From a virus (Duplodnaviria > Caudoviricetes), in IMG/VR virus record IMGVR_UViG_3300028844_003505, positions 1 to 60,730 of that record: a stretch of 60,730 nucleotides of DNA. One strand, 5' to 3'. Position numbers and translations under genes: made by a program. Positions within the stretch are counted from its first letter, which is position 1; each line of letters opens with the position of its first letter. The notes beneath the pieces are model-generated. The model did no database searches. It saw only the letters and a list, made by a program, of their open reading frames with translations, and had not been told where the DNA came from. Of this stretch, positions 46,993 through 60,730 are shown one piece after another.

Positions 46993-47006
46993 ACAATTTT
47001 TTACAT

Positions 47007-47081: not shown

Positions 47082-47102
47082 TTTATTATATAAAGGAATT
47101 AT

Positions 47103-47345
47103 ATGTTTTATCCAATTAAGGTTTATTCAGGGAAAGAATTAGAAGATTATACAAAAGAATCTGGTGATATTATGTCTTCTAAAGTTAGGAAAAATAAAAA
47201 AGGTAAAATAATTTCTCCTAAGCAACTGGATAAAGAATATTGGAACGAATTTGAAAAACAAGAAAAAATATTAAAGGATTTGTCAGTTGGTGTTGTTGAT
47301 GTAAAACAACCAGCCGTTCCTTATAATGATGTGTATTACGAATAA
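47103..47345 (+). CDS. Hypothetical protein
   Basis: ORF with AAGGA RBS between tRNAs. Confidence 0.55.
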   Translation: MFYPIKVYSGKELEDYTKESGDIMSSKVRKNKKGKIISPKQLDKEYWNEFEKQEKILKDLSVGVVDVKQPAVPYNDVYYE

Positions 47346-47354
47346 AATTATTAA

Positions 47355-47430
47355 GCCTTCATAGCTCCAATGGTAGAGCAGGAACTTTGTAAGTTCATGG
47401 TTGGGAGTTCGAATCTCTCTGAAGGCTCCA
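47355..47430 (+). tRNA. tRNA-Thr(TGT)
   Basis: Cloverleaf, CCA. Confidence 0.92.
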
Positions 47431-47678
47431 TTTTTTATCAAAAAGGAATATATATGCAAAATTATAATATAGCTACAACAACCAAAATGTGTACGATGAT
47501 TATTGCAGATTATAATGAACATATGAAACGAAGTATTCCAGAAGTACAAGAACAGTTTCCAGAAATGGATGACAAAGAAATTTTATATTTACTATTACAA
47601 AAATCGATGGAAATATTTGAACAAAACGATTGTCTTTGGAATTAATAATAGAATAAACTCAATAGAGAAGGTTCGATC

Positions 47679-47714
47679 ATGACACAATTTAACACATACA
47701 AACACAAACCATAG
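47679..47714 (+). promoter_or_regulatory. Leader peptide MTQFNTYKHKP upstream of tRNA-Lys
   Basis: AGAGAAGG upstream; two AAA codons; its 3' end is complementary to the tRNA-Lys 5' end. Confidence 0.45.
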
Positions 47715-47761
47715 CCTGTACACCATGCGCCTTGCGTATACGTGTACATGCGTATTAACGT

Positions 47762-47838
47762 GGGCTGTTGGTGTCAATGGTTAGCACATCCGACTTTTAA
47801 TCGGTAAGGTGTAGGTTCGAATCCTATACGGCCTACCA
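47762..47838 (+). tRNA. tRNA-Lys(TTT)
   Basis: Cloverleaf, CCA. Confidence 0.93.
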
Positions 47839-47879
47839 ATTTTTTTGTTGACAAAGAATAAAAATGAGGTTATATTGTT

Positions 47880-48170
47880 ATGGACAAATTAAAAATAGAA
47901 TCTGATGGTGAAAAAAAAGATATTCTTCGAGGAAGATCATTTAAAACATATTGCTTCAATTGTGAATATATAATTAAAGCATCTGAATATAGGGGAAGAG
48001 TTCATTTATGTTCTATAGTAGGTCTTACTTCATATGTTGGAACATATGCAGAGATGCAACCATGTTCGGATGTTAATCTTCATGGGGATTGTGAAGAATA
48101 TAAGCAAGTAAAAATACCAGAAGCAAAACCGGGATTCATCGATACTGTTATACAATGGTTTAAAGAATGA
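47880..48170 (+). CDS. Cys-rich hypothetical protein
   Basis: CFNC..C..C..N.HGDC; own promoter at 47848. Confidence 0.6.
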   Translation: MDKLKIESDGEKKDILRGRSFKTYCFNCEYIIKASEYRGRVHLCSIVGLTSYVGTYAEMQPCSDVNLHGDCEEYKQVKIPEAKPGFIDTVIQWFKE

Positions 48171-48246
48171 GAAGATTGTGGTTAATAATAGTTATCATAA
48201 TTATCTCGATAATAATGTTACTTAAAAATTTATAGGAGAATATGAT

Positions 48247-48723
48247 ATGAATACATCTGAAACACCAACAAAAGACAACGTACTAAGGAGAACCATCCAT
48301 CTACGAGAAAGACTTAATGGCGTAGTCCAACCGACAGGTGGCGCAACGGTTACTTGTGATTACGACAAAGATACCAAACAACTCAGGTTTGCAGTTGCTT
48401 TGTGTTCGACCAAAGATGGGTTTTGTAAGAAAAAAGGTCGATTAATCTCACAAGGAAGACTGGTTACTGGGTTTGTTGCTGATGATCCATATACAATGAT
48501 CGCCGGACATCGGTTTGTTTTTCGTGCTACTGTTCCTGAAAATGTTAGGTTTGTAAATGTTATTTATGATACTATTCAGGATGTATTGAAAAATGATAAA
48601 TGGATCAAAGAACCAGATGTAAGCAATCTGGAAGATATTGCGTATCTTTGCGAAGATACTATCCATTACACAACACAGAAATATACAGAAGAAAATCTAT
48701 TGACACAGCCAATAGATTATTAA
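48247..48723 (+). CDS. Phage hypothetical protein
   Basis: GGATV..AVALCSTKDGFCKKKGR motif; AGGAG RBS. Confidence 0.65.
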   Translation: MNTSETPTKDNVLRRTIHLRERLNGVVQPTGGATVTCDYDKDTKQLRFAVALCSTKDGFCKKKGRLISQGRLVTGFVADDPYTMIAGHRFVFRATVPENVRFVNVIYDTIQDVLKNDKWIKEPDVSNLEDIAYLCEDTIHYTTQKYTEENLLTQPIDY

Positions 48724-48729
48724 AAACTA

Positions 48730-48808
48730 TGCGAGTTCGCCTAGTCTGGTCTAAGGCATCTGTTTCATACGCAGATTAACGTTGGTTCAAATCCAACACT
48801 CGCAACCA
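48730..48808 (+). tRNA. tRNA-CAT (Met; fMet/Ile2 not excluded)
   Basis: Cloverleaf, CAT anticodon, CCA. Confidence 0.88.
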
Positions 48809-48814
48809 AAATAT

Positions 48815-48974
48815 GAGAGAGTGTGTATCGGTTTATACTATGGGAGTGGAGAAAGTTCTGTTAGTAATAGTCACTTATAAGGTTACTAATGTAGTGTTCA
48901 TAATCCCGCAAGATATTGATAGCATGTTATTATATATCAGCCGTTAGCGAATATCCAACAATACACATTCTCCC
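48815..48974 (+). ncRNA. ~160-nt multibranch structured RNA candidate
   Basis: GAGAGAGTGTGTAT/ATACACATTCTCCC closing stem; inner TTAGTAAT/GTTACTAA and CCGTTAGCGG hairpins. Confidence 0.55.
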
Positions 48975-48982
48975 TTTTTAAT

Positions 48983-49057
48983 GGTGGATATAGTTCAAGT
49001 AGAACGGTTCGGTTGTGACCCGGATTGTTGTGGGTTCAAGTCCCATTATTCACCCCA
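48983..49057 (+). tRNA. tRNA-His(GTG)
   Basis: G-1:C73 pair, GTG anticodon, CCA; short D loop. Confidence 0.88.
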
Positions 49058-49093
49058 ATTAATTTAATAACTTAAACCTTTGAGGATTTTATT

Positions 49094-50245
49094 ATGAGCG
49101 AAAATGAAACCATTACAAAAAAGTTTGTACCAACAAATCACAATGTACTGAAAACGGATAATGATAATCATATCGTTGCCAAAAATATTAGCAGTACGGT
49201 AGAACTTAATTCATCATTTCATGAGATGGATGTCTATGGTATTATCAACATGAGATCGTTGAAAAATTTTGATGATTTCTTGAAAGAGTTTCCAAGTAAA
49301 GAGTTTACTGCAAACTTCGATGATTCTTTCAATCTGAAATTGGATTATACTTCGGTTTATAATATTGTAAAGAATTTTGGAGAACTGGCATTATATCAAA
49401 ATCGGTATTACTCGAAATATAAAAATTGTTTGTGTTTGTTTAATATAGATGCTGATTCTAAGAAAACTCAGTTTTCGTATGATATTTATGGTCATGATAT
49501 GACTGAAGTTTTGTCGGTTGCAAACGAGTTTTATAAATCTATCGAAACTTATATTTTTGATGAAAACCATATCAATCTTAAATGGTTGTATATGGACGAA
49601 AATAAACAGTCGAGAGATCATGATGTACAAGTAAAGTATGACGATGTTGTGTTGGCAGAAGCATATCCATTTATTGAAAACTTCTCCAACTACATCGATA
49701 ACTATTTGAATAGTGAAGAAACTATTCTGGTATTGCAGGGAGAACCGGGAACTGGTAAGACTCGATTGATTCGACAGTTGTTAACGGCAATGTCTAAGTT
49801 CCACAATGGTAATAAATATTTTGGATTCACAACATCACCAGAGTTGATTGACAAAGAAACTTTTTACATGCAGTTTTTGTTAAGTGATGGTTATGGTGGA
49901 ATGGTTCTTGAAGATTCTGATACCAGTATTACTTCAAGAAAAAAAATCAGCGAGAACACAACGATCAGTAAAATGTTATTTGCTTCTGATGGATTTATTC
50001 CGCATAATAAGAAAATTATTTTGAGTACAAATCTTGATGTAACAGACATCGATGATGCGATTACTCGAAGTGGACGATGTTATGATTTTGTAAAGACTCG
50101 AAAATTGAGTCCAACCGAAATCAGAACTTTCATGGATGCATACAACAAGAAATTTAATTTGAGTGTCGAGATTCGAGAATTTCATCAAGATGCTCCGTTG
50201 TGTGATGTTTATAAAGCAATAAAGAATACAACAGAAAAGAAATAA
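49094..50245 (+). CDS. AAA+ ATPase
   Basis: GEPGTGKT, VLEDSD, ILSTN, DDAITRSGRC motifs. Confidence 0.85.
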   Translation: MSENETITKKFVPTNHNVLKTDNDNHIVAKNISSTVELNSSFHEMDVYGIINMRSLKNFDDFLKEFPSKEFTANFDDSFNLKLDYTSVYNIVKNFGELALYQNRYYSKYKNCLCLFNIDADSKKTQFSYDIYGHDMTEVLSVANEFYKSIETYIFDENHINLKWLYMDENKQSRDHDVQVKYDDVVLAEAYPFIENFSNYIDNYLNSEETILVLQGEPGTGKTRLIRQLLTAMSKFHNGNKYFGFTTSPELIDKETFYMQFLLSDGYGGMVLEDSDTSITSRKKISENTTISKMLFASDGFIPHNKKIILSTNLDVTDIDDAITRSGRCYDFVKTRKLSPTEIRTFMDAYNKKFNLSVEIREFHQDAPLCDVYKAIKNTTEKK

Positions 50246-50252
50246 GTTTAAT

Positions 50253-50330
50253 CGGAGTGTAGCACAGTCTGGTCAGCGCACATGCTTTGGGAGCATGGGG
50301 TCGTAGGTTCGAATCCTACCACTCCGACCA
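50253..50330 (+). tRNA. tRNA-Pro(TGG)
   Basis: Cloverleaf, C1-G72, CCA. Confidence 0.95.
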
Positions 50331-50346
50331 AATTAATTTAGAAAGT

Positions 50347-50421
50347 CTGGAATGTAGGTGTTGAATCCTACCATCAAAATAGAGTTATGGATGTTTCGAT
50401 GTAGTTTAAGAAAAACACCAG
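50347..50421 (+). ncRNA. Circularly permuted tRNA-like RNA 3
   Basis: CTGG / T arm GTAGG-TGTTGAAT-CCTAC / CATC...GATG closed acceptor / TA-GTTT-AAGAA-AAAC / CCAG. Confidence 0.6.
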
Positions 50422-50436
50422 CTTAGAATTAAAAGA

Positions 50437-50536
50437 GCCGAGAGTATGGGTTCGAATCCCATTATGTAATTAAAGTGTATGCCTATCCATAACTATTTAT
50501 ATATTTATCATATAGTTTAATTGGTAGAACATCGGC
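50437..50536 (+). ncRNA. Circularly permuted tRNA-like RNA 4
   Basis: GCCGA / ATGGG-TTCGAAT-CCCAT / TATG...CATA closed acceptor / TAGTTTAATTGGTAGAACA / TCGGC. Confidence 0.75.
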
Positions 50537-50602
50537 GTTTACCTTTCGCTAGGGTGTAGTGTAACAGAACATAAACAATTATTTAAGTTAGGGGGTCTAA
50601 CT

Positions 50603-51733
50603 ATGAATAAATTTAAAGCACCAGAAGAAGCATCTAACATATATATAGACCATGTTAGCAAAAAAGCAAAGTTTGATTATTTGATTTATATTGGAAGATT
50701 TCAACCATTTCATAATGGACACAAGAAAGTAGTTGAAACTGGTTGTGCTATTTCAGATAAAGTGATTATATTGTGTGGTTCGTGTAATGTTCCTAGAACT
50801 ATTAAGAATCCATTTATATTTGAAGAACGAAAGAATTATATAGAGAAAACATTCGAGCATACTGAATATAAAGATCAGGTTATTATTAGAGGTCTTAATG
50901 ATATGGCATCTAATTCCGAATGGATAATTCAAGTCCAAAATATAATTAATGCATTGACAGAAGCTAATATCTCTGAAAATGTAAAGATTGGAATTATTGG
51001 ACATATGAAAGATGAATCATCTTGGTATCTGGAAAAATTGAATCTAGAATTTATTGAAGTTGGTATTTACAAAGACAGTACAAATATTGCAAATAAAAAA
51101 GTAGATTCTACTGATATTAGGAATCATATTTTTACAAATGAGCAGTACGAGTATAAAAATATAATTTCTGATGCAATGCAATATTGGCTTGAAGATTGGA
51201 AACGAGAAAAATGGGATGTGTATGAACATCTTCAAAAAGAGTATAAATTCAATAAAGAATATAAAAAGCAATGGGAAGGTTCTCCATTCCCTGTTCAATT
51301 TGTAACTGTTGATGCAGTAGTAGTTCAAAATGGACATATTCTTCTAATACAAAGAAAAACACAACCGGGTAAAGATTTATGGGCATTGCCGGGTGGGTTT
51401 TTAAATGAAGATGAAACATTACGTGAAGGAGTTTTACGAGAACTTAAAGAAGAAACACAATTAAAAGTTCCATCTAAGATTTTAGCAACACATATTCAAA
51501 ATCAAAATTCAATAGCTTTTGATAATCCACATAGATCGTTGAGGGGTAGAACAATTACTCACGTATTTGTTTTTAACTTACAACCTGATCCAGAAACTGG
51601 ATTATCTAATATCAAAGGCTCCGATGATGCGAAAGATGCTAAATGGGTTCCTTTGAACGAGTTCGACAAGATGGCAAAGGAAATGTTTGAAGATCATTAT
51701 TTTATTGCCGAGCATTTTATTAAACAATTATAA
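50603..51733 (+). CDS. nadM: Bifunctional NMN adenylyltransferase / Nudix ADP-ribose pyrophosphatase (NadM-Nudix, NatV-like)
   Basis: IGRFQPFHNGH, STDIR, ALPGGF..ETL..GVLRELKEET, GSDDAKDAKW motifs. Confidence 0.95.
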   Translation: MNKFKAPEEASNIYIDHVSKKAKFDYLIYIGRFQPFHNGHKKVVETGCAISDKVIILCGSCNVPRTIKNPFIFEERKNYIEKTFEHTEYKDQVIIRGLNDMASNSEWIIQVQNIINALTEANISENVKIGIIGHMKDESSWYLEKLNLEFIEVGIYKDSTNIANKKVDSTDIRNHIFTNEQYEYKNIISDAMQYWLEDWKREKWDVYEHLQKEYKFNKEYKKQWEGSPFPVQFVTVDAVVVQNGHILLIQRKTQPGKDLWALPGGFLNEDETLREGVLRELKEETQLKVPSKILATHIQNQNSIAFDNPHRSLRGRTITHVFVFNLQPDPETGLSNIKGSDDAKDAKWVPLNEFDKMAKEMFEDHYFIAEHFIKQL

Positions 51734-51770
51734 TTACAATATTAATAACTTATTTTAAGGGGGTCTTAAA

Positions 51771-53204
51771 ATGAATAAACGAAATATTATTTTAAATACT
51801 GATAGTTATAAACTTAGTCACTATAAACAATATCCAAAAGACACACAAACGATTTACTCTTATATTGAAAGTCGTGGTGGTCGATTTGATAAAACATTAT
51901 TCTTTGGTTTGCAAATGTTTATTAAAGAATATTTACAGAAACCGATCACCGCAGTAGATATTCTTGAAGCAAAAGATGTTGCAGAAAAACATGGTCTTTC
52001 CTTTAATGAGGAAGGATGGAATTACATTCTTAAAGAACATGGTGGCAAACTACCATTAAAAATCAGAGCAGTTAATGAAGGTGTTCTTGTTCCAGTATCT
52101 AATGTGATGGTGACGATGGAAAATACTGATCCGAAATGTTTTTGGCTAACTAACTATATCGAAACAGCACTGTTGCGAGCAATTTGGTATCCAACCACAG
52201 TAGCTACACAGAGTTATGAGATAAAGAAAATGATTTATAAATACTTAGAGGAAACTTCTGATGATCCAGATACAGAGATTGGTTTCAAATTACATGATTT
52301 TGGTGCAAGGGGAGTATCTAGCTTTGAGTCTGCTGGTATTGGTGGACTTGCACATCTTATAAATTTTATGGGTACAGATACGCTTACGGCTCTCCTGTAC
52401 GCCCGTGAATATTATAATGAAGATATGGCGGGATTTTCTTGTAACGCATCCGAACATTCTACTATTACTGCATGGGGTCGTAAGTTCGAGCGAGAAGCAT
52501 ACGAGAATATGATAAATCAGTATGGTGGCGAGGGTAAGATGTTTGCTTGTGTATCTGATTCTTATGATATCTATAATGCAGTAAACAATATTTGGGGAAA
52601 TCAACTAAAAGAAAAGGTTATTAATAATGGTGCTAGATTAATTATCAGACCTGATTCTGGAGTTCCAGAAAAAGTTGTTCCGCAAATTTTAAAAGACCTT
52701 ATGAACCATTTTGGTTCTACCAAAAATTCTAAAGGATATTTGGTATTGCCGGATTATGTTCGAGTTATTCAAGGTGATGGAATTAATTTTGATTCTATTA
52801 AACGTATTCTTGAAAAACTAAAAGAATGTGGAATTAGTGCCGACAACGTTGCGTTTGGTATGGGTGGAGCATTGTTGCAACAGTTAGACAGAGATACACA
52901 ACAATTTGCAATGAAATGTTCTGCTATCTTGAGAGATAATAAATGGGAAGATGTTTACAAAGAACCAGTGACTGATGCTGGTATGTCTTTTCAGAAAAAA
53001 TCTAAGCCGGGAAGATTGACTCTGATTTGGGATAATGTCAAGAAAAAACACAGAACAGAAAGATATCCATTAGCACACCAACCTTGGCAAGCAGGACCAG
53101 CTAATGAATGGTCTCATATGGAAGTAATGCATACTGTTTTTGAAAATGGAAAACTAGTTGCAGAATCTTCTTTGAAAGATATTCGTAGTAGAGTTAAATT
53201 ATAA
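51771..53204 (+). CDS. nadV: Nicotinamide phosphoribosyltransferase
   Basis: TDSYKLSH, LHDFGARG, ASEHS, VSDSYD, IRPDSG, IQGDG, FGMGGALLQ motifs. Confidence 0.96.
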   Translation: MNKRNIILNTDSYKLSHYKQYPKDTQTIYSYIESRGGRFDKTLFFGLQMFIKEYLQKPITAVDILEAKDVAEKHGLSFNEEGWNYILKEHGGKLPLKIRAVNEGVLVPVSNVMVTMENTDPKCFWLTNYIETALLRAIWYPTTVATQSYEIKKMIYKYLEETSDDPDTEIGFKLHDFGARGVSSFESAGIGGLAHLINFMGTDTLTALLYAREYYNEDMAGFSCNASEHSTITAWGRKFEREAYENMINQYGGEGKMFACVSDSYDIYNAVNNIWGNQLKEKVINNGARLIIRPDSGVPEKVVPQILKDLMNHFGSTKNSKGYLVLPDYVRVIQGDGINFDSIKRILEKLKECGISADNVAFGMGGALLQQLDRDTQQFAMKCSAILRDNKWEDVYKEPVTDAGMSFQKKSKPGRLTLIWDNVKKKHRTERYPLAHQPWQAGPANEWSHMEVMHTVFENGKLVAESSLKDIRSRVKL

Positions 53205-53227
53205 ATAATAATCTTGGATGGCGTTTT

Positions 53228-53314
53228 ATGAAAAAAAATCTATTTGTGAAGGATAATATCAAATCAGAGATATACGGGAGCATGAAATATGCTCCCGTAG
53301 CTCAATGGCAGTAG
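53228..53314 (+). promoter_or_regulatory. Leader ORF reading into tRNA-Ile(UAU) with an anti-acceptor hairpin
   Basis: MKKNLFVKDNIKSEIYGSMKYAPVAQWQ; ATA codon at 53270 directly precedes TACGGGAGCAT, which pairs with ATGCTCCCGTA. Confidence 0.5.
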
Positions 53315-53362
53315 CGGTCTCCTTATAAGAGATTGACGTAGGTTCGAATCCTACCGGGAGCA
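53291..53362 (+). tRNA. tRNA-Ile(TAT)
   Basis: Cloverleaf, loop CT-TAT-AA, A73; CCA not encoded. Confidence 0.85.
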
Positions 53363-53397
53363 TAATTTATGCTCATAAAATTTAAAGGGGTATAATT

Positions 53398-53856
53398 ATG
53401 ATTGATAAATTTGAAGGTGATTATAGATTTTTATCTAATTTTTGGGAGTGTCCTATTCTTTGGAATGGTGTTACATATAAATCAGCAGAACATTTTTATC
53501 AAGCTAGAAAAGCAATAACACCAGAAGATCACGAAAAAATTCGTAATGCTTCAGTCTCTGAATGCAAACGAATTGGTAATAGAATAGATATTCGTGATGA
53601 TTGGGATAGTATTAAAATTCGTGTCATGGATGATGTTGTGTTTTTAAAGTTTACACAGAACAAAGATTTACAAATAAAACTCATGAAAACATTTCCTTCT
53701 CGATTAGTTGAAGGTAATACATGGCATGATAATTTTTGGGGAAATTGTACTTGTAAAAAATGCAGTAAACAATTTGGAAAGAATTATTTAGGACAAACTC
53801 TAGAACATTGGAGACAAATGTTTATTGTGGATATGATAGAAAAATTGGGGTCGTAG
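53398..53856 (+). CDS. NADAR family ADP-ribosylhydrolase (YbiA-like)
   Basis: FLSNF, SAEHFYQARK, LKFTQN, LVEGNTWHDNFWG, GKNYLG motifs. Confidence 0.92.
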   Translation: MIDKFEGDYRFLSNFWECPILWNGVTYKSAEHFYQARKAITPEDHEKIRNASVSECKRIGNRIDIRDDWDSIKIRVMDDVVFLKFTQNKDLQIKLMKTFPSRLVEGNTWHDNFWGNCTCKKCSKQFGKNYLGQTLEHWRQMFIVDMIEKLGS

Positions 53857-53923
53857 CTAAATTGGGAAAGCACCTGCTTTGCACGTAGAAGATGTGAGAG
53901 TTCGAATCTCTCCGACTCCACCA
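53847..53923 (+). tRNA. tRNA-Ala(TGC)
   Basis: G3:U70, TGC anticodon, ACCA. Confidence 0.93.
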
Positions 53924-53984
53924 AATTATTTAATAAGAAAGTATCGAAATTGATATTTATTAATTTAAACGAAAGTGAATACGT

Positions 53985-54629
53985 ATGAAAAAAAATTATA
54001 GTAAACTTGTTTACATCATGGATCGATCTGGTTCTATGCATGGATTGACTGAAAAATCTGTAGAAGGATTTAATTCTTTTGTTCAAGATCAAAAGAAAAT
54101 TGAAGGAACCGCAGATTTAACTCTTGCAATTTTTGATACTGAATATGAAACAGTATTTGAAGATGTAGATATTAAATCTGTTCATCCAATCACGGAAAAA
54201 GATATTTATGCAAGAGGTATGACAGCATTGTTGGATGCTATTGGTAGAACAATCGATTCTGTAGGATCAAAGATAGATAAACTTGGGGAAAATCAAAAAC
54301 CAGAACATGTTGTAGTTGTGGTTATGACAGATGGACACGAAAATTCCTCACAAGAATACAATAGAGAACAAATTAAAAAGTTGATTACCCAACAGGAAGA
54401 TGTTTATAATTGGAATTTTCTATTCATGGGAGCAAATCAAGACTCATTTGCTACTGGTGGTGGTCTAGGATTTAAGAGCGGAAATATTTCAAATTTTGAC
54501 GCATCTATTCAAGGAGCCGCAACTGCATATTCAACAACTTCAAATTTTGTTGGTAATCTTCGATGTAAGGTAGAAAATAAATCTTTGTCAGATACATACA
54601 AAGACGAAGAAGAAAAATTATCAAAATAA
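53985..54629 (+). CDS. vWA-domain protein
   Basis: DRSGSM, TALLDAIG, MTDGHENSS, FLFMGANQD motifs. Confidence 0.9.
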   Translation: MKKNYSKLVYIMDRSGSMHGLTEKSVEGFNSFVQDQKKIEGTADLTLAIFDTEYETVFEDVDIKSVHPITEKDIYARGMTALLDAIGRTIDSVGSKIDKLGENQKPEHVVVVVMTDGHENSSQEYNREQIKKLITQQEDVYNWNFLFMGANQDSFATGGGLGFKSGNISNFDASIQGAATAYSTTSNFVGNLRCKVENKSLSDTYKDEEEKLSK

Positions 54630-54634
54630 CTTGT

Positions 54635-54708
54635 AGGGAATTAGTATAATGGTAGTACGTTTCTTTTACATGGAAAATGCGGGGGTTCGATACCCTCATT
54701 CCCTACCA
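54635..54708 (+). tRNA. tRNA-Val(TAC)
   Basis: Cloverleaf, ACCA. Confidence 0.9.
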
Positions 54709-54787
54709 TTTTGATGTGGAAAAATATAAAATAATATCTTGACGTATCAATGAAGTTGTGTTACACTGTATTATAACAATCAAACAA

Positions 54788-54862
54788 GCGGGTATAGTTC
54801 AATTGGTAGAACTACTGCCTTCCAAGCAGAAGACATCGGTTCGATTCCGGTTATCCGCTCCA
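54788..54862 (+). tRNA. tRNA-Gly(TCC)
   Basis: GCG acceptor start, U73, CCA; promoter TTGACG-17-TACACT at 54739. Confidence 0.93.
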
Positions 54863-55041
54863 TATAACTGTCAGGAGACTAATTATGGTAAATGATTTAG
54901 ATACAATACACACCAAAAAAATTAATTCTGGTCTTATGGTTCATGTTAACGGACACCCATTGAGTGTAGAAGAAGAAAAGAAGTTGAAAAAATGTATTAA
55001 GAAATCAAGAAAATCATTGAATATAAAGAAGTAGATATTAT

Positions 55042-55102
55042 GCCTTGAAGCTATTTATAATTTCATACATGTCGGTATGGATGGAATAGTGGATAGGCTC
55101 CA
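55042..55102 (+). ncRNA. CCA-tailed hairpin RNA, divergent member of the ATAC...GGAT family
   Basis: GCCT/AGGC + TCCA end; apical TTTCATAC-ATGTCG-GTATGGATG. Confidence 0.45.
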
Positions 55103-55110
55103 AATAACTT

Positions 55111-55186
55111 TCCAAGGTAGCTTACATGGTGAAAGCATTCGGTTGAAGCCCGATAGAGGTGGGATCGTTACCTACCCTTGGAACCA
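55111..55186 (+). tRNA. tRNA-Phe(GAA) with atypical T loop
   Basis: Cloverleaf, ACCA; T loop ATCGTTA. Confidence 0.82.
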
Positions 55187-55217
55187 AATTTATTATTAAT
55201 TTTTTAATCATGGAGAA

Positions 55218-55976
55218 ATGATTATGCCAAAATTACATGAAATTCTAGCAGTAGAAGGATCGGTACAGGGAGCATCAAAGGATATTATCAAGGAAACTGA
55301 AAATACCTTTACCAACAAATCCACACATTTTCGTGGTGGTGTTAAACAGTATGTTCCTTTCTCTGAAGATGAAAAGGAATCCGAAGCATATCAAGAGTCA
55401 ACCGAAATGGTAACTTCGGTAGACAAGAAACTCGAACATTTTTGGGGAGTAGTTTCTAATGAATTGGATGTTACCTTCCAAAAAGAATGTACCAATCAGG
55501 AAGCGGTTGCTGATATTATTGTGGAAGGAAAAACTTTAAAAACAGGAGTTCCTGTTGGATTCTTGCTTGGTCTCGAAGCTAAGATCAAAGAATGGCGAAG
55601 AGTTCTTAAAGCAATTCCAACTCTACAACCGGGTGTAAAATGGGAACGAGATGTAGACCGGGGAGAAGATGTTTGGACTACAACACCTGATCCGGCGTTT
55701 CGAACACGTAAAGAAGTTCGATTCAAAGTTATGGTTCCTCCAACGGAAAAACATCCTGCCCAACTTGAGAAATGGAACGAGCAAGTTAATTGTGGTAAAT
55801 TCAATACAACCATTTGGTCTGGTGAGTATTCTACCGCACAAAAAGCAGAATTGCTAACTCGTTTGGATAGACTCGAACATGGTGTTAAACAAGCACGTAA
55901 TAGAGCCAATTCAATCGAAGTAAAAGATTTAGAAATTTCAGATGAATTAAGAAATTATTTAATCAGAGGTATTTAA
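55218..55976 (+). CDS. Conserved helical protein of unknown function (DUF7873-like, from recollection)
   Basis: KLHEILAVE, VPVGFLLGLE, IPTLQP..W, PPTEKHPAQ, WSG, AR.RAN motifs. Confidence 0.6.
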   Translation: MIMPKLHEILAVEGSVQGASKDIIKETENTFTNKSTHFRGGVKQYVPFSEDEKESEAYQESTEMVTSVDKKLEHFWGVVSNELDVTFQKECTNQEAVADIIVEGKTLKTGVPVGFLLGLEAKIKEWRRVLKAIPTLQPGVKWERDVDRGEDVWTTTPDPAFRTRKEVRFKVMVPPTEKHPAQLEKWNEQVNCGKFNTTIWSGEYSTAQKAELLTRLDRLEHGVKQARNRANSIEVKDLEISDELRNYLIRGI

Positions 55977-56070
55977 TTTTGTGGTGCAATTTTATTATTA
56001 TTATTAGCGACAACATATCATTATCGTTATAATATTAGCCACCAAATTTATTGTAAATCTTCTATATATA

Positions 56071-56179
56071 GTATGTTGCAGACCCTTAAACATTAAGGAA
56101 TGGGTTCGAATCCCATCCCAGCCTCCAAAATTATCATGGCTGGGTAGTTTAATGGCAGAACGTAATGGTATTAGCATAC
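56071..56179 (+). ncRNA. Circularly permuted tRNA with internal CCA (RNA 5)
   Basis: CATTA / ATGGG-TTCGAAT-CCCAT / CCCAGCC-TCCA / spacer AAATTATCAT / GGCTGGG-TA-GTTTAATGGCAGAAC-G / TAATG. Confidence 0.8.
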
Positions 56180-56211
56180 ACGGGACTGTTAAGAGAATTA
56201 TGTAGAATACA

Positions 56212-56281
56212 AACAGTCGCCCAACTGGTTAGGGCAATAGTTATTGAAAACTATCGGTTGCGGGTTCGATTCCCGCCTGTT
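56212..56281 (+). ncRNA. tRNA-like element with 5-bp acceptor, non-7-nt anticodon loop and no CCA
   Basis: Good D arm GCCC-AACTGGTTA-GGGC and T arm GCGGG-TTCGATT-CCCGC. Confidence 0.65.
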
Positions 56282-56292
56282 AAAACAACTTT

Positions 56293-56328
56293 GGGGAGTC
56301 GGCAAGGATATGTCGGCTCCCTTCTTTT
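56293..56328 (+). terminator. Intrinsic terminator
   Basis: GGGAGTCGGCA...TGTCGGCTCCC-TTCTTTT. Confidence 0.75.
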
Positions 56329-56342
56329 ATATTTAAAAAATT

Positions 56343-56546
56343 ATGAATGAATATTGGCAATTTCCAAAACCGGATATACTAAAACGAATTGGATTTCCAT
56401 GCTCCTTTTGTAGCAGTAATCATGAAGACGATGGTGTATACATCATAGCGGGTCCGGGTGTTTATATATGTAGTGAGTGTGTGGAACTGTGTAACGAAGT
56501 ATTGGCAGAACAAAATAAAAAATCACATAATGCGGTAGGATTTTAA
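56343..56546 (+). CDS. Stand-alone ClpX C4 zinc-binding domain
   Basis: CSFC...[21 protein letters not shown]. Confidence 0.88.
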
Positions 56547-56547
56547 A

Positions 56548-57126
56548 ATGAGTGTACGATTAGACAAATTTTTAGTAATTGATCTTGAAGCTACTTGTTG
56601 GGAAGATGGTGTTGCTCCAAATGGAAAACTTCAAAAAGAAGAATCTGAAATTATTGAAATAGGAGTATGTGAAGTATTTAAATTGGATAATAAATACCAT
56701 ACCGGAAGATTGCAAAGTTATTATGTAAAACCAACAAAACATATTATAAGTGATTATTGTGAAGAATTAACAGGTATATCAGAATCACTATTGGAAGATA
56801 AAGGAACTACTTTAGATAGAGCATTGCATAACTTCAATAAAGATTTCGCCCCAAAATATAAACCATATATGGCATGGGGAAATTATGATAAGAAACAAAT
56901 CTTAAAGGAATGTGAAGAAAAGCAGATACTTAATAGGTATAAATTTTCAGATACATATCTAAATATAAAGAATTTGTTTTCATTAAAATATGGATTAGAT
57001 AAAGAAATTAGATTGAGTAAAGCATTAGAACTTGCAGGTATGGAATTTATTGGAAATGCTCATAGTGGAAAAGATGATGCACACAATACAGCTAGAATTT
57101 TATTGAAACTTATTAACCCTCTATAG
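56548..57126 (+). CDS. DEDDh 3'-5' exonuclease (ERI1/KapD-like)
   Basis: VIDLEATC, EIIEIG, ELTGI, WGNYD, HSGKDDA motifs. Confidence 0.9.
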   Translation: MSVRLDKFLVIDLEATCWEDGVAPNGKLQKEESEIIEIGVCEVFKLDNKYHTGRLQSYYVKPTKHIISDYCEELTGISESLLEDKGTTLDRALHNFNKDFAPKYKPYMAWGNYDKKQILKECEEKQILNRYKFSDTYLNIKNLFSLKYGLDKEIRLSKALELAGMEFIGNAHSGKDDAHNTARILLKLINPL

Positions 57127-57190
57127 TGTAATGGATGCATACGACTCTTCGAAAGTCTTGGTCAGGGTTCGAATCCTTGTGGGGGGTCCA
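57117..57190 (+). tRNA. tRNA-Arg(TCG)
   Basis: Cloverleaf, CCA; 5' end shared with tRNA-Arg(TCT). Confidence 0.88.
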
Positions 57191-57209
57191 AATAAAGATG
57201 GGATAAATT

Positions 57210-57629
57210 ATGAATATGATATCTGAAAAAATCAATAAATGGCATGTTGAAAATTGTGAAATATTAGAACCAGAAACATCAAATTTTTTGGAAATATTAG
57301 AACAGGATGTCAGCGAACTCAAAACGGTTGAAAGTAATAAAGCTGAGTTAGCTAATTTAATTGTTGAACATCAAAGAGAGATATCTGGATGGGAAGAAGA
57401 AGTATCCTCATATAAGTCTTCATATTATGATTTGAAAGAGTGTATAGAAACTTTGACAGATGATATCATACACGAGGTATCAAACATAAAACAAACGATA
57501 ATTGATGAATATTTATATGATTTGAAAGACGTTGATAAAAAAACATATATAGAAGAAAAGTTACGATTGTACGAAAATAACATTGATAATCATATATGGA
57601 AATTTAATAGCAACAATTATCATTTTTAA
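57210..57629 (+). CDS. Coiled-coil hypothetical protein
   Basis: ORF track. Confidence 0.55.
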   Translation: MNMISEKINKWHVENCEILEPETSNFLEILEQDVSELKTVESNKAELANLIVEHQREISGWEEEVSSYKSSYYDLKECIETLTDDIIHEVSNIKQTIIDEYLYDLKDVDKKTYIEEKLRLYENNIDNHIWKFNSNNYHF

Positions 57630-57631
57630 AC

Positions 57632-57706
57632 GGGTCGATAGTGTAACGGTAACATGACAGTCTCCAAAACTGTTCGATGTGGGTTCGAATCCTACTCTAC
57701 CCGCCA
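57632..57706 (+). tRNA. tRNA-Trp(CCA)
   Basis: Cloverleaf, G73, CCA. Confidence 0.9.
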
Positions 57707-57721
57707 AAAATAAATACATAC

Positions 57722-57796
57722 AGGGGATTGGTGTAACGGTTATCACGTTTGGTTTTGGTCCAGAAGATACGAGTTCGATTCTTGTATCCCCTTCCA
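57722..57796 (+). tRNA. tRNA-Gln(TTG)
   Basis: Cloverleaf, CCA. Confidence 0.88.
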
Positions 57797-57819
57797 CCTT
57801 TAAATAGGAGTGAGTAAAA

Positions 57820-58119
57820 ATGAGTAAAATACACAAGTACGATCAATATACACAATTAAGAAAAGATCAAAAAGCAGAGTTTGTTAATAATCAATTAATA
57901 AATATAATTGATGATATCGAAAGAAATTTACTACTATATCAAGAAAAAGTGGATGAAGTAAAATCAAAAAAAGAAATGTTAAAAAAGGTTTTAGAAAGTG
58001 ATGATGTAGATGAAATTTTTCATTATATTAGTAATAACTGTAATAATCATAGTAGAGGATATGATATTGACGAACAGTGGAGAATTTTTCAAGATAAAAC
58101 AAAACTAAATAGAGGATAA
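57820..58119 (+). CDS. Hypothetical protein
   Basis: AGGAG RBS. Confidence 0.6.
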   Translation: MSKIHKYDQYTQLRKDQKAEFVNNQLINIIDDIERNLLLYQEKVDEVKSKKEMLKKVLESDDVDEIFHYISNNCNNHSRGYDIDEQWRIFQDKTKLNRG

Positions 58120-58124
58120 ATATT

Positions 58125-58559
58125 ATGACAGACTCATTTTTGAAGATTATAAAGATGGATGCAGATAAAGCACGTAGAGCCGGAGAAAAGGATAAAGCAA
58201 CATCATTGATGACTCTATACTCCGAAGCATATATGAAAGGTAAGAATCGTGGTAATCGTGAAACTACCGATGACGAAGTTCTTGATATGATTCAAGTATT
58301 TGTTAAAAATATTGATGCTCTATTAGAACATCCATGCAATGCAGATTTCCGAGAAAAAGCAAAAATTGAACGAGAATTGCTATCTTCATATCTACCAGAA
58401 AAACTTACAGAAGAACAATTGGTAAATATGATCAACTCATATACTAAAAAATTAGAGATTACATCAATTGGTCAGGTTATGAAATGGTTGAAAGAAACAG
58501 TTCCAAATCAATATGATTCGAAACAAGCTTCCACAATAGCTAGGAGTTTTTTATCATAA
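58125..58559 (+). CDS. GatB/YqeY-domain protein
   Basis: TTDDEVL..I...VK, ERELLSSYLPEKLTEEQL, IGQVMKWLK motifs. Confidence 0.85.
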   Translation: MTDSFLKIIKMDADKARRAGEKDKATSLMTLYSEAYMKGKNRGNRETTDDEVLDMIQVFVKNIDALLEHPCNADFREKAKIERELLSSYLPEKLTEEQLVNMINSYTKKLEITSIGQVMKWLKETVPNQYDSKQASTIARSFLS

Positions 58560-58584
58560 CAAAAGTTCTTTAAGAAGGGATGGT

Positions 58585-59241
58585 ATGGAGTTAGTAGAAA
58601 CCGAATTGCCGGGTTGTTACCATTTAAAGTCAGTAAGTCAATATGAATTAGTTGCAACATTTATGAGGATGCAAGAATTTTATGAATCGAATATAGATGG
58701 TATTCGTGGAGTATATTTTAGTATAGAAGAATTCATGGATGCATATGCAAAAGAACATGGCAACTTTACATATTTTGTTGATTGGGTTGGTTTTAATTTA
58801 AGTAGTAGAATAATAAGAGAATTTTATAGAAAATTTCCAGTTAAAAAATTAACCAACAGAGAGAAAGAATTTAAAGAACTAATAGCTCCTATTTTAAAAA
58901 CTAGAAGAAAGTTTTGTATTATAGGAACATTTCAAAAGCTATCAAAAAAAGAATATAGCACATACGAACATGAAATGGCACATGGATTATATTTCTTAAA
59001 TAAGAAGTATAAGAAAAAAATGGATACTATGTTAGAGTCTCTTGGCGATTTCAAGCAACCATGTTTTGATATACTAAAGAAAAAGGGATATGATGAAACA
59101 GTTTATTATGATGAATTGCAAGCATATCTGGCAACATCAAAATATAATTATTTGAAGAAAAAACACTATACAAAATATATAAGCAAACCTCTTGTCTTAG
59201 AATTTAGAAAAGTGTTTTTAGAATTTAAATCGAGGATGTAA
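58585..59241 (+). CDS. Hypothetical HExxH (zincin-like) protein
   Basis: FMRMQEFYES, HEMAHGLY, DELQAY motifs. Confidence 0.65.
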   Translation: MELVETELPGCYHLKSVSQYELVATFMRMQEFYESNIDGIRGVYFSIEEFMDAYAKEHGNFTYFVDWVGFNLSSRIIREFYRKFPVKKLTNREKEFKELIAPILKTRRKFCIIGTFQKLSKKEYSTYEHEMAHGLYFLNKKYKKKMDTMLESLGDFKQPCFDILKKKGYDETVYYDELQAYLATSKYNYLKKKHYTKYISKPLVLEFRKVFLEFKSRM

Positions 59242-59247
59242 ATTATA

Positions 59248-59478
59248 ATGATATATGTTTTAATGGGATCAATAGTCTTATTTTGTTTGTTTGTGGTATT
59301 TTCTGTGATATTTCCAACTACTGGAAATCTTTTGATAGATAAAACAGATAAAGTTGAAAAAGTATTTGACAATTGGTGGGAAAGATGTATAATAGATAAA
59401 ATAAAGAAATTTGATAATTGGATGTTTGATAAAATAAAGAAATTTGATAATTGGATGTTTGATAAAATAAAGAAATAA
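59248..59478 (+). CDS. Small TM protein with 11-aa repeats
   Basis: N-terminal TM; DKIKKFDNWMF repeats. Confidence 0.55.
   Translation: MIYVLMGSIVLFCLFVVFSVIFPTTGNLLIDKTDKVEKVFDNWWERCIIDKIKKFDNWMFDKIKKFDNWMFDKIKK
59395..59476 (+). repeat. 33-nt tandem repeat x2.5
   Basis: GATAAAATAAAGAAATTTGATAATTGGATGTTT. Confidence 0.9.
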
Positions 59479-59489
59479 AGGAAAGTAAG

Positions 59490-59552
59490 ATGGACGACTA
59501 TTATTATAGAGAAAATCACATAACTAATAAGGTGAGTTGCATGAATGGTTAA
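59490..59552 (+). promoter_or_regulatory. Leader ORF MDDYYYRENHITNKVSCMNG reading into tRNA-Tyr
   Basis: AAGGAAAG RBS; TAT-TAT-TAT; stop codon lies in the tRNA D arm. Confidence 0.5.
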
Positions 59553-59616
59553 ATGACCCGGTTGTAACCCGGAGGTACGGACACCGTTATAGGTTCGAAT
59601 CCTATGCTCACCACCA
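59531..59616 (+). tRNA. tRNA-Tyr(GTA)
   Basis: Class II cloverleaf with long variable arm, ACCA. Confidence 0.9.
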
Positions 59617-59626
59617 AATATATTGT

Positions 59627-59701
59627 GGCGGTATAGACTAACGGTTAGGTCACATGACTTTCACTCATGTAGTTCGGGTTCAAATCCCGATATCGTCACC
59701 A
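59627..59701 (+). tRNA. tRNA-Glu(TTC)
   Basis: Cloverleaf, ACCA. Confidence 0.9.
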
Positions 59702-59729
59702 AAATTAATTTTAATTTATAGGAGTTTAA

Positions 59730-60730
59730 ATGAAAAAATTTTTACTAAGTATTATGATAGTTTTATTTTTAGCAACACCCGTTCTTGCTGAATTTTCAGC
59801 AGAAGAAAATGACCAAATTACAATCTTGCACCAAGCTGGTGAAGAATTTAGTGTGGCTGTTGATACTGCTCTTGCTGGATGGGACACAGATCAAGCATCA
59901 CCCATGCCATTTGATATTTATAGAGTAGGAAAGATTAAATCTGACTTAGTAGATAGTAATATTCGGTTGTTGGGTTCGGCAACTGGTAATGTTGTAGGAT
60001 TTCCTCTTTACCCTAATAATAATCAATTGACTGGTGATCGAGCAACCGATGTAGAAAATGCTTGGATATATGTAGATGAAGTTATTAAAGAAATAAATAG
60101 AATTTCAAATAACATGAATAATGTGCGAAATGGAAATATCGCTGAATCCTATGCAGATCAATTGACATTATCTCAGAGTCAGTTGGCAGAAGTTATTTTG
60201 ATGTTAGAATCTATAGATCGTTCATTATCATTTTCTGAACCATACTTAGATATATTTCCATTACAATTTGGTCCACATGGAGATTTCCTAAATGCTCAAA
60301 AATCATTAGGAGAAAGTAGACGATTACTATTTTATTCAGGTATTCAATTACATTTTGCCTTGACTAGAACAAATACTAATCATACTGAAAACGTTGTCGA
60401 TTATAGTGACTGTGTGCAAAGATTATTTACAAAACTATCATGGATTGCTAATTTGTCAAACAACGTACCTGTAGATAATGAGGCTAGTGCTGTACTCAAT
60501 GCTACGGGCGAAGGATTAGAGCGAGCATCAGTTTTGGTGGCATTGAAACAGATTGAGGTAGCCAATAGAGATATGCCAAGAGATTATGATTGTGCTATCG
60601 GCAAATTGACTGGCATGATGGTAGACGAAGAAGATAAAGAAGCTAGAAAATTAATTGGCAGTTCTATTAGTTTTCTAACAAGAGGATGGTTGAACGGTCC
60701 TGATGGATGGAACAATAACTTTATGCAAAT
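59730..60730 (+). CDS. 3'-truncated exported protein
   Basis: AGGAG RBS; signal peptide MKKFLLSIMIVLFLATPVLA; appears open to the window end. Confidence 0.7.
   Translation, partial: MKKFLLSIMIVLFLATPVLAEFSAEENDQITILHQAGEEFSVAVDTALAGWDTDQASPMPFDIYRVGKIKSDLVDSNIRLLGSATGNVVGFPLYPNNNQLTGDRATDVENAWIYVDEVIKEINRISNNMNNVRNGNIAESYADQLTLSQSQLAEVILMLESIDRSLSFSEPYLDIFPLQFGPHGDFLNAQKSLGESRRLLFYSGIQLHFALTRTNTNHTENVVDYSDCVQRLFTKLSWIANLSNNVPVDNEASAVLNATGEGLERASVLVALKQIEVANRDMPRDYDCAIGKLTGMMVDEEDKEARKLIGSSISFLTRGWLNGPDGWNNNFMQ

Follow-up and report, generated by a model that had tools for sequence, protein, structure and literature searches.

Leader frames upstream of three phage tRNA genes: a conserved candidate tri-tyrosine frame at tRNA-Tyr and a predicted anti-acceptor hairpin at tRNA-Ile

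The described systems closest to the tRNA leaders considered here are the leader-peptide transcription attenuators of enterobacterial amino-acid operons (trpL, hisL, pheL, and thrL) and translational attenuation of the ermC and cat type, in which ribosome pausing in a leader frame opens a hairpin. Pairing between the two flanks of a stable RNA is also familiar, both from the leader-trailer stalks of rRNA operons, which are cut by RNase III, and from leader-trailer pairing in pre-tRNAs. The tRNA clusters of T4-type phages contain interspersed small frames as well as some tRNAs that lack CCA and need a 3′ endonuclease and CCA addition. We know of no report of a conserved tri-tyrosine frame in T4.

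The window analyzed here is the whole 60,730-nucleotide stretch of IMG/VR record IMGVR_UViG_3300028844_003505, a fragment of an uncultured, AT-rich, T4-like marine phage. It carries the T4-type core genes for the major head protein (phrog_138, E 2e-152) and DNA polymerase (phrog_262, E 6e-261). The cultured phages that match best, at 38-40% identity, are T4-like cyanophages and a pelagiphage, and the polymerase is only ~39% identical to that of any cultured phage. Twenty tRNA calls, 19 of them typed, span positions 45560-59701 (~14 kb) and are packed among small genes. Core genes, a tRNA cluster interleaved with small frames, and one CCA-less tRNA are all found together as in T4-type phages, although the cluster is much larger here. 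CCA is encoded in 18 of the 20 calls, the exceptions being tRNA-Ile(UAU) and an odd tRNA-like call at 56210. The stops of real-looking genes lie 2-9 nt 5′ of six tRNAs [tRNA-Arg(TCT), Thr, Met, Pro, Val, and Trp], while a NADAR gene (Pfam, E 6e-27) and an RNase_T gene (Pfam, E 3e-15) end 10 nt inside tRNA-Ala and tRNA-Arg(TCG), with no cognate codons near the ends of either. A frame running into a tRNA is ordinary in this genome. The tRNA genes would sit in translated, polycistronic transcripts of early type, from which the tRNAs would have to be excised.

Table 1. Features of the three tRNA leaders, in positions of the window.
Feature	Position	Strand	Remarks
Lys leader frame MTQFNTYKHKP	47679-47714	+	11 codons and TAG; two AAA; G-free A/C-rich spacer
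Imperfect hairpin between Lys frame and tRNA	47714-47751	+	no U-run after it; z -0.67 and -1.07
tRNA-Lys(UUU)	47762-47838	+	CCA encoded; T-run next
Promoter-like TTGACA-17-TATATT 3′ of tRNA-Lys	47848-47876	+	
Ile leader frame	53228-53314	+	28 codons; stop inside tRNA D region
ATA, codon 15 of Ile frame	53270-53272	+	abuts anti-acceptor arm TACGGGAGCAT
11-bp anti-acceptor hairpin	53273-53299	+	loop GAAAT; TACGGGAGCAT (53273-53283) pairs with ATGCTCCCGTA (53289-53299)
tRNA-Ile(UAU)	53290-53363	+	sole typed tRNA of 19 without encoded CCA
20-nt inverted repeat around tRNA-Ile	53278-53297 and 53355-53374	+	arms 90% complementary
Perfect consensus sigma-70-type promoter TTGACA-16-TATAAT	59366-59393	+	TG before -10; absent from L095
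Three 33-nt tandem repeats	59386-59476	+	begin at -10 element; absent from L095
Tyr leader frame MDDYYYRENHITNKVSCMNG	59490-59552	+	AAGGAAAG before ATG; ends 22 nt inside tRNA-Tyr
TAT TAT TAT in Tyr frame	59499-59507	+	TAT TAC TAT in L095
tRNA-Tyr(GUA)	59531-59616	+	
tRNA-Glu(UUC)	59627-59701	+	

The original prediction was that short frames containing cognate codons, located 5′ of tRNA-Lys, tRNA-Ile, and tRNA-Tyr, may act as attenuators supplying tRNA on demand. All three frames are present as described (Table 1). Their starts show Shine-Dalgarno-like pairing (Lys -6.3, Ile -5.5, and Tyr -5.6 kcal/mol) within the range of real genes, where 53 gene starts have a median of -5.7 kcal/mol, compared to -1.8 across 1597 ATGs; each can accordingly be read as a leader frame with a ribosome-binding site whose translation is predicted. 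The enrichment of cognate codons that had been proposed as a check was not found in short frames 5′ of tRNAs, either in the window or in leaders outside it. For the short upstream frames of the 19 typed tRNAs, the matching scores add up to 7.4, below the mean of 8.68 obtained by permuting labels (P=0.72), and 127 non-identical leaders from other phage loci score 54.7 against 52.2 (P=0.32). The caveat attached to the prediction, that AAA, ATA, and TAT are common codons, was well placed, as they make up 7.1%, 2.7%, and 3.1% of codon usage in the window. Binomial tails for the cognate counts are 0.24 for Lys (2/10 codons), 0.37 for Ile (1 ATA in 27 codons), and 0.035 for Tyr (3/19). Tyrosine runs occur in 9/876 short frames of the window, and 0.13 short frames with a run of at least three of one amino acid would be expected beside a cognate tRNA per window under random placement.

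The leaders also differ in kind. The Lys leader has no significant structure (fold z-scores -0.67 and -1.07), the Ile leader combines strong structure with a weak codon case, and the Tyr leader is unstructured (+0.42 and -0.09). Nine terminator-like sites were found in 45000-60730, none of them within 47679-47761, 53228-53289, or 59490-59530. Given that cognate enrichment, terminators, and a shared architecture are all missing, a common system of the three leaders is not supported. The Tyr case resembles the leader-peptide attenuators in having a short, Shine-Dalgarno-led frame with three tandem cognate codons directly upstream of the product, whereas the Lys frame has two separated cognate codons and the Ile frame has one. 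Unlike the attenuators, none of the leaders has an intrinsic terminator between frame and tRNA or the alternative 1:2, 2:3, and 3:4 hairpins; the Ile leader does have two mutually exclusive folds, but neither is a terminator. Furthermore, the controlled product here would be the tRNA itself, and the Tyr frame enters that product rather than stopping before a terminator.

The Lys frame (ATG ACA CAA TTT AAC ACA TAC AAA CAC AAA CCA TAG) would be a chance frame in an A/C-rich spacer, since two AAA per 10 codons matches the codon usage of the window. A leader segment had been described as pairing with the 5′ end of tRNA-Lys, but this amounts to 6 pairs and stands at chance level, with a fold z of -1.07 that 30/200 shuffles equal and a duplex z of -1.2 that 37/300 equal. 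No relative with this tRNA was found.

The Tyr leader is as first described, with a tri-tyrosine frame that runs into its tRNA. In the window its ATG lies 12 nt past the stop of a preceding 76-codon frame. The sigma-70-type promoter lies within that 76-codon frame, ~100 nt 5′ of the Tyr frame. Structure prediction gives no RNA switch for this A/U-rich leader, and the peptide has no match to a PHROG family. The motif of the frame does not recur elsewhere in the window, and it is therefore not a repeated promoter or operator word.

Conservation was assessed in one syntenic relative, locus L095, in which the neighboring gene (218-aa) is 61% identical and the order of gene, frame, tRNA-Tyr, and tRNA-Glu is the same. 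The frame is kept in this relative (1/1) as MD[DE]YYYRENHI. The blastn match begins at the ATG of the frame in both (position 1576 of L095 and 59490 of the window), AAGGAA lies upstream in both genomes, and the start codon in L095 shares bases with the stop that precedes it (TAATG). Identity over the first 38 nt of the frame is 35/38 (92%), compared to 63/86 (73%) for tRNA-Tyr, 54/75 (72%) for tRNA-Glu, and ~47% for the flanks (14/30 before the ATG and 16/33 after tRNA-Glu). Among 1147 alignment windows of 38 nt, only the core of the 218-aa gene equals the identity of the Tyr frame. The substitutions from the window to L095 are GAC>GAA (D>E), TAT>TAC (synonymous), and ACT>ATT, and the unchanged state of 8/9 synonymous sites fits codon bias, as estimated by hand from codon counts. 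Beyond the conserved part, the frames differ in reading frame and length, with 20 codons in the window and 17 in L095. A frame of this type is absent from four distinct tRNA-Tyr leaders of distant phages (L012, L116, L129 type, and L158). On this alignment the tri-tyrosine frame appears as a conserved element, and it is probably translated; with one relative and three substitutions, coding and non-coding constraint on it are inseparable. Its conservation is what the original prediction leads one to expect, yet it is not specific to that idea.

The specific mechanism that we favor for the Tyr leader is put forward tentatively, as possible rather than probable, and consists in ribosome traffic and slow tyrosine decoding gating the maturation of tRNA-Tyr. 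Translation of the frame would bring ribosomes up to and into the first 14-22 nt of the tRNA, and this traffic would hold the 5′ acceptor strand and D arm unfolded, delaying cleavage by RNase P. When the three Tyr codons, located 24-32 nt upstream, are decoded slowly, ribosomes would be kept off the tRNA, and with ribosomes held back the Tyr-Glu precursor would fold and be cut. However, the occurrence of three tyrosines beside tRNA-Tyr is only mildly unlikely by the counts given above, and a ribosome terminating within the tRNA departs again, so the effect may be small.

A serious contender, though short of a probable one, is that this is a functional leader whose tyrosine run is incidental and senses nothing. 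The 38 nt could serve the Tyr-Glu precursor as a non-coding element for binding, processing, or stability, or the frame could be kept for translational coupling to the upstream gene or for a tiny peptide. What has been seen is conservation and not its cause, and an unstructured A/U-rich leader resembles the sites of single-strand-specific nucleases or proteins. Runs of three tyrosines are common in AT-rich frames, and other genes of the window also abut or overlap tRNAs. This contender fits less well with homology that starts exactly at the ATG, with the AAGGAA retained upstream of it, and with third codon positions accounting for two of three substitutions, including a silent change in the tyrosine run. 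The unlike C-terminal parts argue against a trans-acting peptide, and the lack of a PHROG match also counts against this contender.

At tRNA-Ile, an ATA codon does directly precede an 11-bp anti-acceptor hairpin, formed between the 5′ acceptor strand of the tRNA and a copy of its 3′ acceptor strand located in the leader. The hairpin has a z of -5.52 (0/200 shuffles as good) and a duplex z of -5.82 (0/300). It constitutes half of the 20-nt inverted repeat, which offers two options, namely the acceptor stem extended by nine leader-trailer pairs, or two hairpins that lock both acceptor strands. The leader-trailer duplex has a z of -3.74, with 0/300 shuffles as good. Duplex z reaches at most -2.91 for the other 19 tRNA calls of the window, and 0/130 background tRNAs from other phage loci fall below -4. 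The minimum free energy fold of 53265-53385 is a cloverleaf on the extended stem (-44.0 kcal/mol, pair probability 0.91), and the enforced two-hairpin fold, at -41.9 kcal/mol, is nearly isoenergetic with it. The 5′ prefixes up to 53364 retain the leader hairpin, and the cloverleaf becomes best only once the trailer is transcribed. In these computed folds the anti-acceptor hairpin competes with the acceptor stem: the leader arm would capture the 5′ acceptor strand first, and transcription of the trailer would then favor the cloverleaf with its nine-pair extension. No relative was found for the tRNA-Ile(UAU) locus.

As in ermC and cat attenuation, a functional strand is sequestered in a hairpin that the Ile frame enters, and ribosome occupancy of the 5′ arm of this hairpin would release its partner. 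Here, however, the sequestered strand is a tRNA acceptor strand rather than a ribosome-binding site, the competing fold is supplied by a 3′ trailer, and any pausing would rest on one ATA codon. This single codon adds no evidence for a codon role. Its placement is precisely such that a ribosome pausing there would cover the leader arm, which a reading without a codon role takes as coincidence. The flanks also resemble leader-trailer stalks, as they form a helix continuous with the terminal stem, found in this window at tRNA-Ile only. Unlike the known stalks, this one is short, its cleavage is putative, and it consists of acceptor-strand copies, which create a second fold that locks the tRNA. 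The repeat may be a folding and processing device, serving as a stalk for endonucleolytic excision independently of the ATA codon; the tRNA itself would require a 3′ cut and CCA addition.

It is unlikely, but worth weighing, that the Ile flanks are instead an evolutionary scar that is now functionless, in which tandem duplication plus deletion, or recombination, left copies of the tRNA ends when the tRNA was acquired. The leader copy TACGGGAGCAT is almost identical to the 3′ end of the tRNA (TACCGGGAGCAT), ATGCTC in the trailer is a repeat of the 5′ end, and both copies lie 5 nt away from the tRNA. In lacking CCA, tRNA-Ile differs from the other typed tRNAs, and no tRNA-Ile adjoins the NadV homologues of 12 other phage loci. 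Nevertheless, two independent scars with the exact lengths and spacing for a nine-pair extension and for nearly isoenergetic folds would be much to ask of chance, and nothing similar was seen among the 130 other phage tRNAs.

Very unlikely is the view that nothing here is functional and that the likeness of the Tyr leader to L095 comes from a tRNA-Tyr/Glu cassette having been exchanged recently, and not from selection. Only a single relative is at hand and tRNA islands are mosaics, L095 having an additional 115-codon frame and lacking the 76-codon frame and promoter; however, exchange predicts tRNAs as similar as the frame, and they are considerably less so. Phage tRNAs are reported to counter tRNA-targeting defenses (PMC10264068; PMC11555353). 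This supports the reading, in line with the original prediction, in which the Lys, Ile, and Tyr leaders are all stall sensors that release phage tRNA only upon depletion of the host isoacceptor, as anticodon nucleases could cause; still, despite the three Shine-Dalgarno-led frames, the ATA abutting a real anti-acceptor hairpin, and the tyrosine run kept in L095, it is highly improbable, as cognate codons are common in the window and not enriched, Lys structure and pairing are at chance level, terminators and a shared architecture are lacking, and real genes enter tRNAs without cognate codons.

Ultimately, we lean toward the view that the three cases are heterogeneous and form no three-tRNA system, while the Ile structure and the Tyr frame are real. 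Conservation of the Tyr frame and the Ile hairpin are the features that exceed chance, and what endures of the tRNA-on-demand idea lies in these two and not in a common system. Bolder, and unlikely, is the proposal that the tri-tyrosine frame is a terminator-free, ribosome-read gauge of tyrosine decoding. Ribosomes passing through it unhindered would enter tRNA-Tyr and unfold its first third, those delayed at the Tyr codons would halt before the tRNA, and the Tyr-Glu precursor would fold and be cut only when charged tRNA-Tyr is scarce; in its boldest form, the double lock on tRNA-Ile(UAU) would likewise be opened by ribosomes waiting at AUA. If true, the tRNA gene would gauge its own product and close a feedback loop.

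The original prediction held that tRNA-Lys(UUU), tRNA-Ile(UAU) and tRNA-Tyr(GUA) are made on demand, each behind a short leader frame containing the codon that the tRNA reads. All three frames are present in the window as described, and their start codons have SD-like pairing in the range of real gene starts, which is equalled by 9–15% of 1597 ATGs. A common control system for the three tRNAs is not supported, as cognate codons are not enriched and no terminator-like site was found within the Lys, Ile or Tyr leader. Two real and separate features remain: a conserved tri-tyrosine frame before tRNA-Tyr and a doubly locked tRNA-Ile(UAU).

Positions of the leader frames, their tRNAs and neighbouring genes in the window
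Feature	Position	Strand	Remarks
HD-domain protein gene	46029-46514		Pfam, weak match
Lys frame	47679-47714	+	Reads MTQFNTYKHKP, with AAA CAC AAA
tRNA-Lys(UUU)	47762-47838	+	
Ile frame	53228-53314	+	Passes ATA (53270-53272) into TACGGGAGCAT
tRNA-Ile(UAU)	53290-53363	+	
NADAR-domain gene stop	53847-53856		10 nt inside tRNA-Ala
RNase_T-family exonuclease gene	56548-57126		Pfam
RNase_T-family exonuclease gene stop	57117-57126		10 nt inside tRNA-Arg(TCG)
YqeY-like protein gene	58125-58559		Pfam
Gene for 218-aa protein	58585-59241		
Tyr frame	59490-59552	+	Reads MDDYYYRENHITNKVSCMNG; ends 22 nt inside tRNA-Tyr
tRNA-Tyr(GUA)	59531-59616	+	

The window is the entire IMG/VR record (60,730 bases, completeness rating 33%), with a G+C content of 28–39%. 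Its T4-type large genes encode the major head protein, a gp43-type DNA polymerase, a DnaB-like helicase, a ligase and an SbcC-like nuclease. Among cultured phages the polymerase reaches at most about 40% identity, the best matches being T4-like cyanophages and Pelagibacter phage HTVC008M. Window DNA is contained in two DNA sequencing runs, both from one marine metagenome sample from which the window may originate, and in no RNA run among the runs listed.

The + strand carries all 20 tRNA genes that ARAGORN calls, which lie within 45560–59701; Rfam confirms these genes and adds further weak tRNA-like matches. The small genes between the tRNAs, several of them supported by Pfam, include those for an HD domain, an AAA ATPase, an NMN adenylyltransferase-Nudix protein and NadV, as well as NADAR, DUF7873, an RNase_T-family exonuclease and a YqeY-like protein. 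The exonuclease, YqeY-like and HD-domain proteins are candidates for phage-made trimming of tRNA ends or other tRNA-related functions. At six tRNAs a gene stop lies only 2–9 nt before the tRNA start. Since the NADAR and RNase_T genes end inside tRNA-Ala and tRNA-Arg(TCG), overlap between gene and tRNA is routine in this phage, and these two Pfam-supported genes together with the six close stops indicate that ribosomes routinely reach tRNA 5′ ends. This crowded setting argues against over-reading a frame that enters a tRNA.

The island also holds unusual tRNA-like elements. One, at 56078–56192, is permuted, running from T arm through 3′ acceptor strand, CCA and a 10-nt linker to a 5′ acceptor strand that matches the 3′ one and a part resembling a D arm, and it gives a weak Rfam match to YrlA (26.8 bits, E 0.04). 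Its 17-nt T arm recurs at 50446–50462, within a weak tRNA match (29.3 bits; 50395–50470). The stretch 56210–56322 begins with a tRNA-like gene, typed '???' by ARAGORN and scoring 45.8 bits against Rfam tRNA, which has no CCA; by eye its acceptor stem is poor and its anticodon loop seems to have 8 nt. After this gene comes a terminator-like hairpin (56293–56322) that is stronger than any other in the region.

The statistical case for the leaders was judged against codon usage in 38 long frames (12,997 codons), where AAA accounts for 7.1%, ATA for 2.7% and TAT for 3.1%. Frames of 2–45 codons starting at most 110 nt upstream of each of the 19 typed tRNAs were scored for the codons which that tRNA decodes, by their best binomial tail, with reshuffled tRNA labels as the null. 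For matched pairs the summed score is 7.4, and reshuffling gives a mean of 8.68 (sd 2.02, P = 0.72); at least one cognate codon occurs in 13 of the 19 leaders (P = 0.65), and six of 340 mismatched leader-tRNA pairs outscore the best matched pair. The same permutation test on 127 non-identical tRNA leaders of other phage loci gave 54.7 against 52.2 (P = 0.32), so the predicted enrichment of cognate codons before tRNAs is found in neither set. The sole matched run of three among the 127 is the homologue of the Tyr frame in L095, a metagenome contig. Of the 876 short frames on the + strand of the window, 84 contain one amino acid three or more times in a row, nine of these being Tyr runs, and random placement would be expected to put 0.13 such frames per window beside a cognate tRNA. 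Because of this permutation null, and because runs are common in AT-rich frames, the codon coincidence by itself carries little weight. The caveat that accompanied the prediction was well placed: in AT-rich phage DNA, frames with AAA, ATA or TAT beside a cognate tRNA readily arise by chance, and claims of cognate-codon leaders need a permutation control and relatives.

Relatives of the leaders proved scarce. Among cultured phages, a search in near mode matched two of 50,697 records, at tRNA-Pro only, and in distant mode only tRNA bodies were matched, among the best 25 of 72, 8 of 303, 8 of 506 and 30 of 486 records. In IMG/VR, a NadV query returned 12 loci, in which NadV has no tRNA-Ile(UAU) neighbour, a 383-aa ATPase query found no relative, and the major head protein reached 63% identity at most. 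The exact tRNA-Ile pattern, the exact tRNA-Tyr pattern and a back-translated leader each gave 0 matches in IMG/VR. A looser leader pattern gave two chance matches there, in coding region with no nearby tRNA, and the GTDB genomes held one match, likewise by chance, within bacterial coding sequence.

For the Lys leader, the frame with AAA CAC AAA stands, and the predicted pairing with the tRNA 5′ end does not stand out as a special feature: the hairpin and the 6-pair contact are no better than shuffles (z −0.67, −1.07 and −1.2). The leader was also considered as one of the island's tRNA-like or CCA-tailed hairpin elements and rejected, having no Rfam match and no T-arm-like pairing by eye.

The structure at tRNA-Ile(UAU) is of another order. 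As predicted, an 11-bp anti-acceptor hairpin directly follows the ATA codon, formed by pairing of TACGGGAGCAT with the first bases of the tRNA, and its z-scores against shuffles (−5.5 and −5.8) are far outside chance; none of 130 tRNAs of other loci has a comparable hairpin (best z −3.27). The hairpin is half of a 20-nt inverted repeat around the tRNA (53278–53297 and 53355–53374, 90% complementary). With both flanks present, the best predicted fold is a normal cloverleaf in which nine pairs between leader and trailer lengthen the acceptor stem (−44.0 kcal/mol, z −5.6, pair probability 0.91). An alternative, with the 5′ acceptor strand bound by the leader and the 3′ strand by the trailer, is only 2.1 kcal/mol worse. 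For all 5′ prefixes of the transcript the hairpin fold is predicted to be best until the trailer is made. This tRNA alone among the typed tRNAs of the window lacks an encoded CCA. From these predicted folds we infer that the repeat may serve the folding and excision of this tRNA, whose 3′ end has to be cut and supplied with CCA. The main rival explanation is that the flanks are the scar of a duplication, and no relative of the leader was found at the NadV loci, with the exact tRNA-Ile pattern in IMG/VR or among the cultured-phage matches listed. A ribosome waiting at the ATA codon would cover the leader arm of the hairpin; one common ATA codon cannot carry a claim of ribosome waiting. The locus is a clean, testable case of a tRNA with flanks that specify a misfolding trap as well as the way out of it.

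Upstream of the Tyr frame lies the gene for a 218-aa protein with a conserved HE.AH motif and no Pfam family. It has 69 homologous proteins, including P0002 (74% identity), P0007 (65%), P0003 (63%), P0004 (61%) and P0006 (59%), and at least one tRNA gene lies within 3 kb of a homologue in 33 of 80 IMG/VR loci (L099–L178), which suggests that the family is linked to phage tRNA islands. A metagenome scan with this protein recovered L095 as the only close homologue. There the neighbouring protein is 61% identical and the order is the same: 218-aa gene, short frame, tRNA-Tyr, tRNA-Glu. An L095 fragment at 1920–1965, after tRNA-Glu, is T-arm-like (GGTTCGATTCC type) with no ARAGORN call, and may be another tRNA-like element like those in the window.

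The predicted Tyr frame, with TAT-TAT-TAT and an end inside tRNA-Tyr, is present, and in L095 it takes the form MDEYYYRENHIIKCGVA. The DNA match starts precisely at the ATG of the frame, whose first 38 nt agree at 35 positions, against 63/86 for tRNA-Tyr, 54/75 for tRNA-Glu and about 47% for adjoining outside sequences; elsewhere in the alignment this similarity is equalled in the core of the 218-aa gene alone. From window to L095 the codon changes are D>E, TAT>TAC (silent, within the Tyr run) and T>I. Beyond the conserved part the two frames enter tRNA-Tyr in different registers, both stopping in the D arm. The start codon of the L095 frame shares bases with the stop codon of the 218-aa gene; that of the window frame comes 12 nt downstream of the stop of a 76-codon frame, which has no counterpart in L095. 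Within this 76-codon frame, at 59366–59476, are a perfect consensus promoter (TTGACA-16-TATAAT with TG) and three 33-nt tandem repeats, the −10 element being the start of the first repeat; both are absent from L095. Contigs of the source marine sample show no variant within 59447–59724, and include one with a 21-nt insertion after 59296.

Fold prediction gives an unstructured leader in both genomes. With one relative and three substitutions to compare, the conserved bases may also be a non-coding element. As a protein-coding alternative, a peptide gene fits less well than a cis-acting translated leader, since only the N-terminal dozen codons are conserved, the C-terminus is free and the start is coupled to a preceding stop. 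No PHROG family matches the 20-codon (Tyr), 28-codon (Ile) or 76-codon frame, and no frame of the Tyr type precedes the tRNA-Tyr genes of more remote phages, for which four distinct leaders were compared. Since it occurs once in the window, the Tyr leader was rejected as a repeated word of promoter or operator kind.

For a translated Tyr leader, the mechanism considered most likely, which we hold only tentatively and regard as rather doubtful, is the second variant of the original prediction, in which ribosomes are kept out of the tRNA. Unhindered translation would run ribosomes across the tRNA-Tyr 5′ acceptor strand and its D arm. Slow decoding of the Tyr run would, by the geometry of the sequence, hold them at least 11 nt short of the tRNA, which would permit folding and cutting. 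Such a leader would work like a leader-peptide attenuator, but it is not filed as one because two defining features, the terminator and the alternative hairpins, are missing.

To our knowledge, the regulation and maturation of phage tRNAs have been little studied. The portions of the literature that our search returned held nothing relevant on leader-peptide or upstream-frame control of phage tRNA genes, and no description of a terminator-free leader-peptide sensor acting directly on a tRNA. In the excerpts retrieved, phage tRNAs are now credited with countering host defences that cleave tRNAs and with a role in codon supply (PMC10264068, PMC11555353). If the Tyr frame gates the maturation of tRNA-Tyr, ribosome occupancy would take the place of the terminator in it, and the frame would be a leader-peptide sensor with direct control over a tRNA. 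Both the tri-tyrosine frame and the tRNA-Ile element are testable, and the former would gain real interest from proof that it senses tyrosine decoding.
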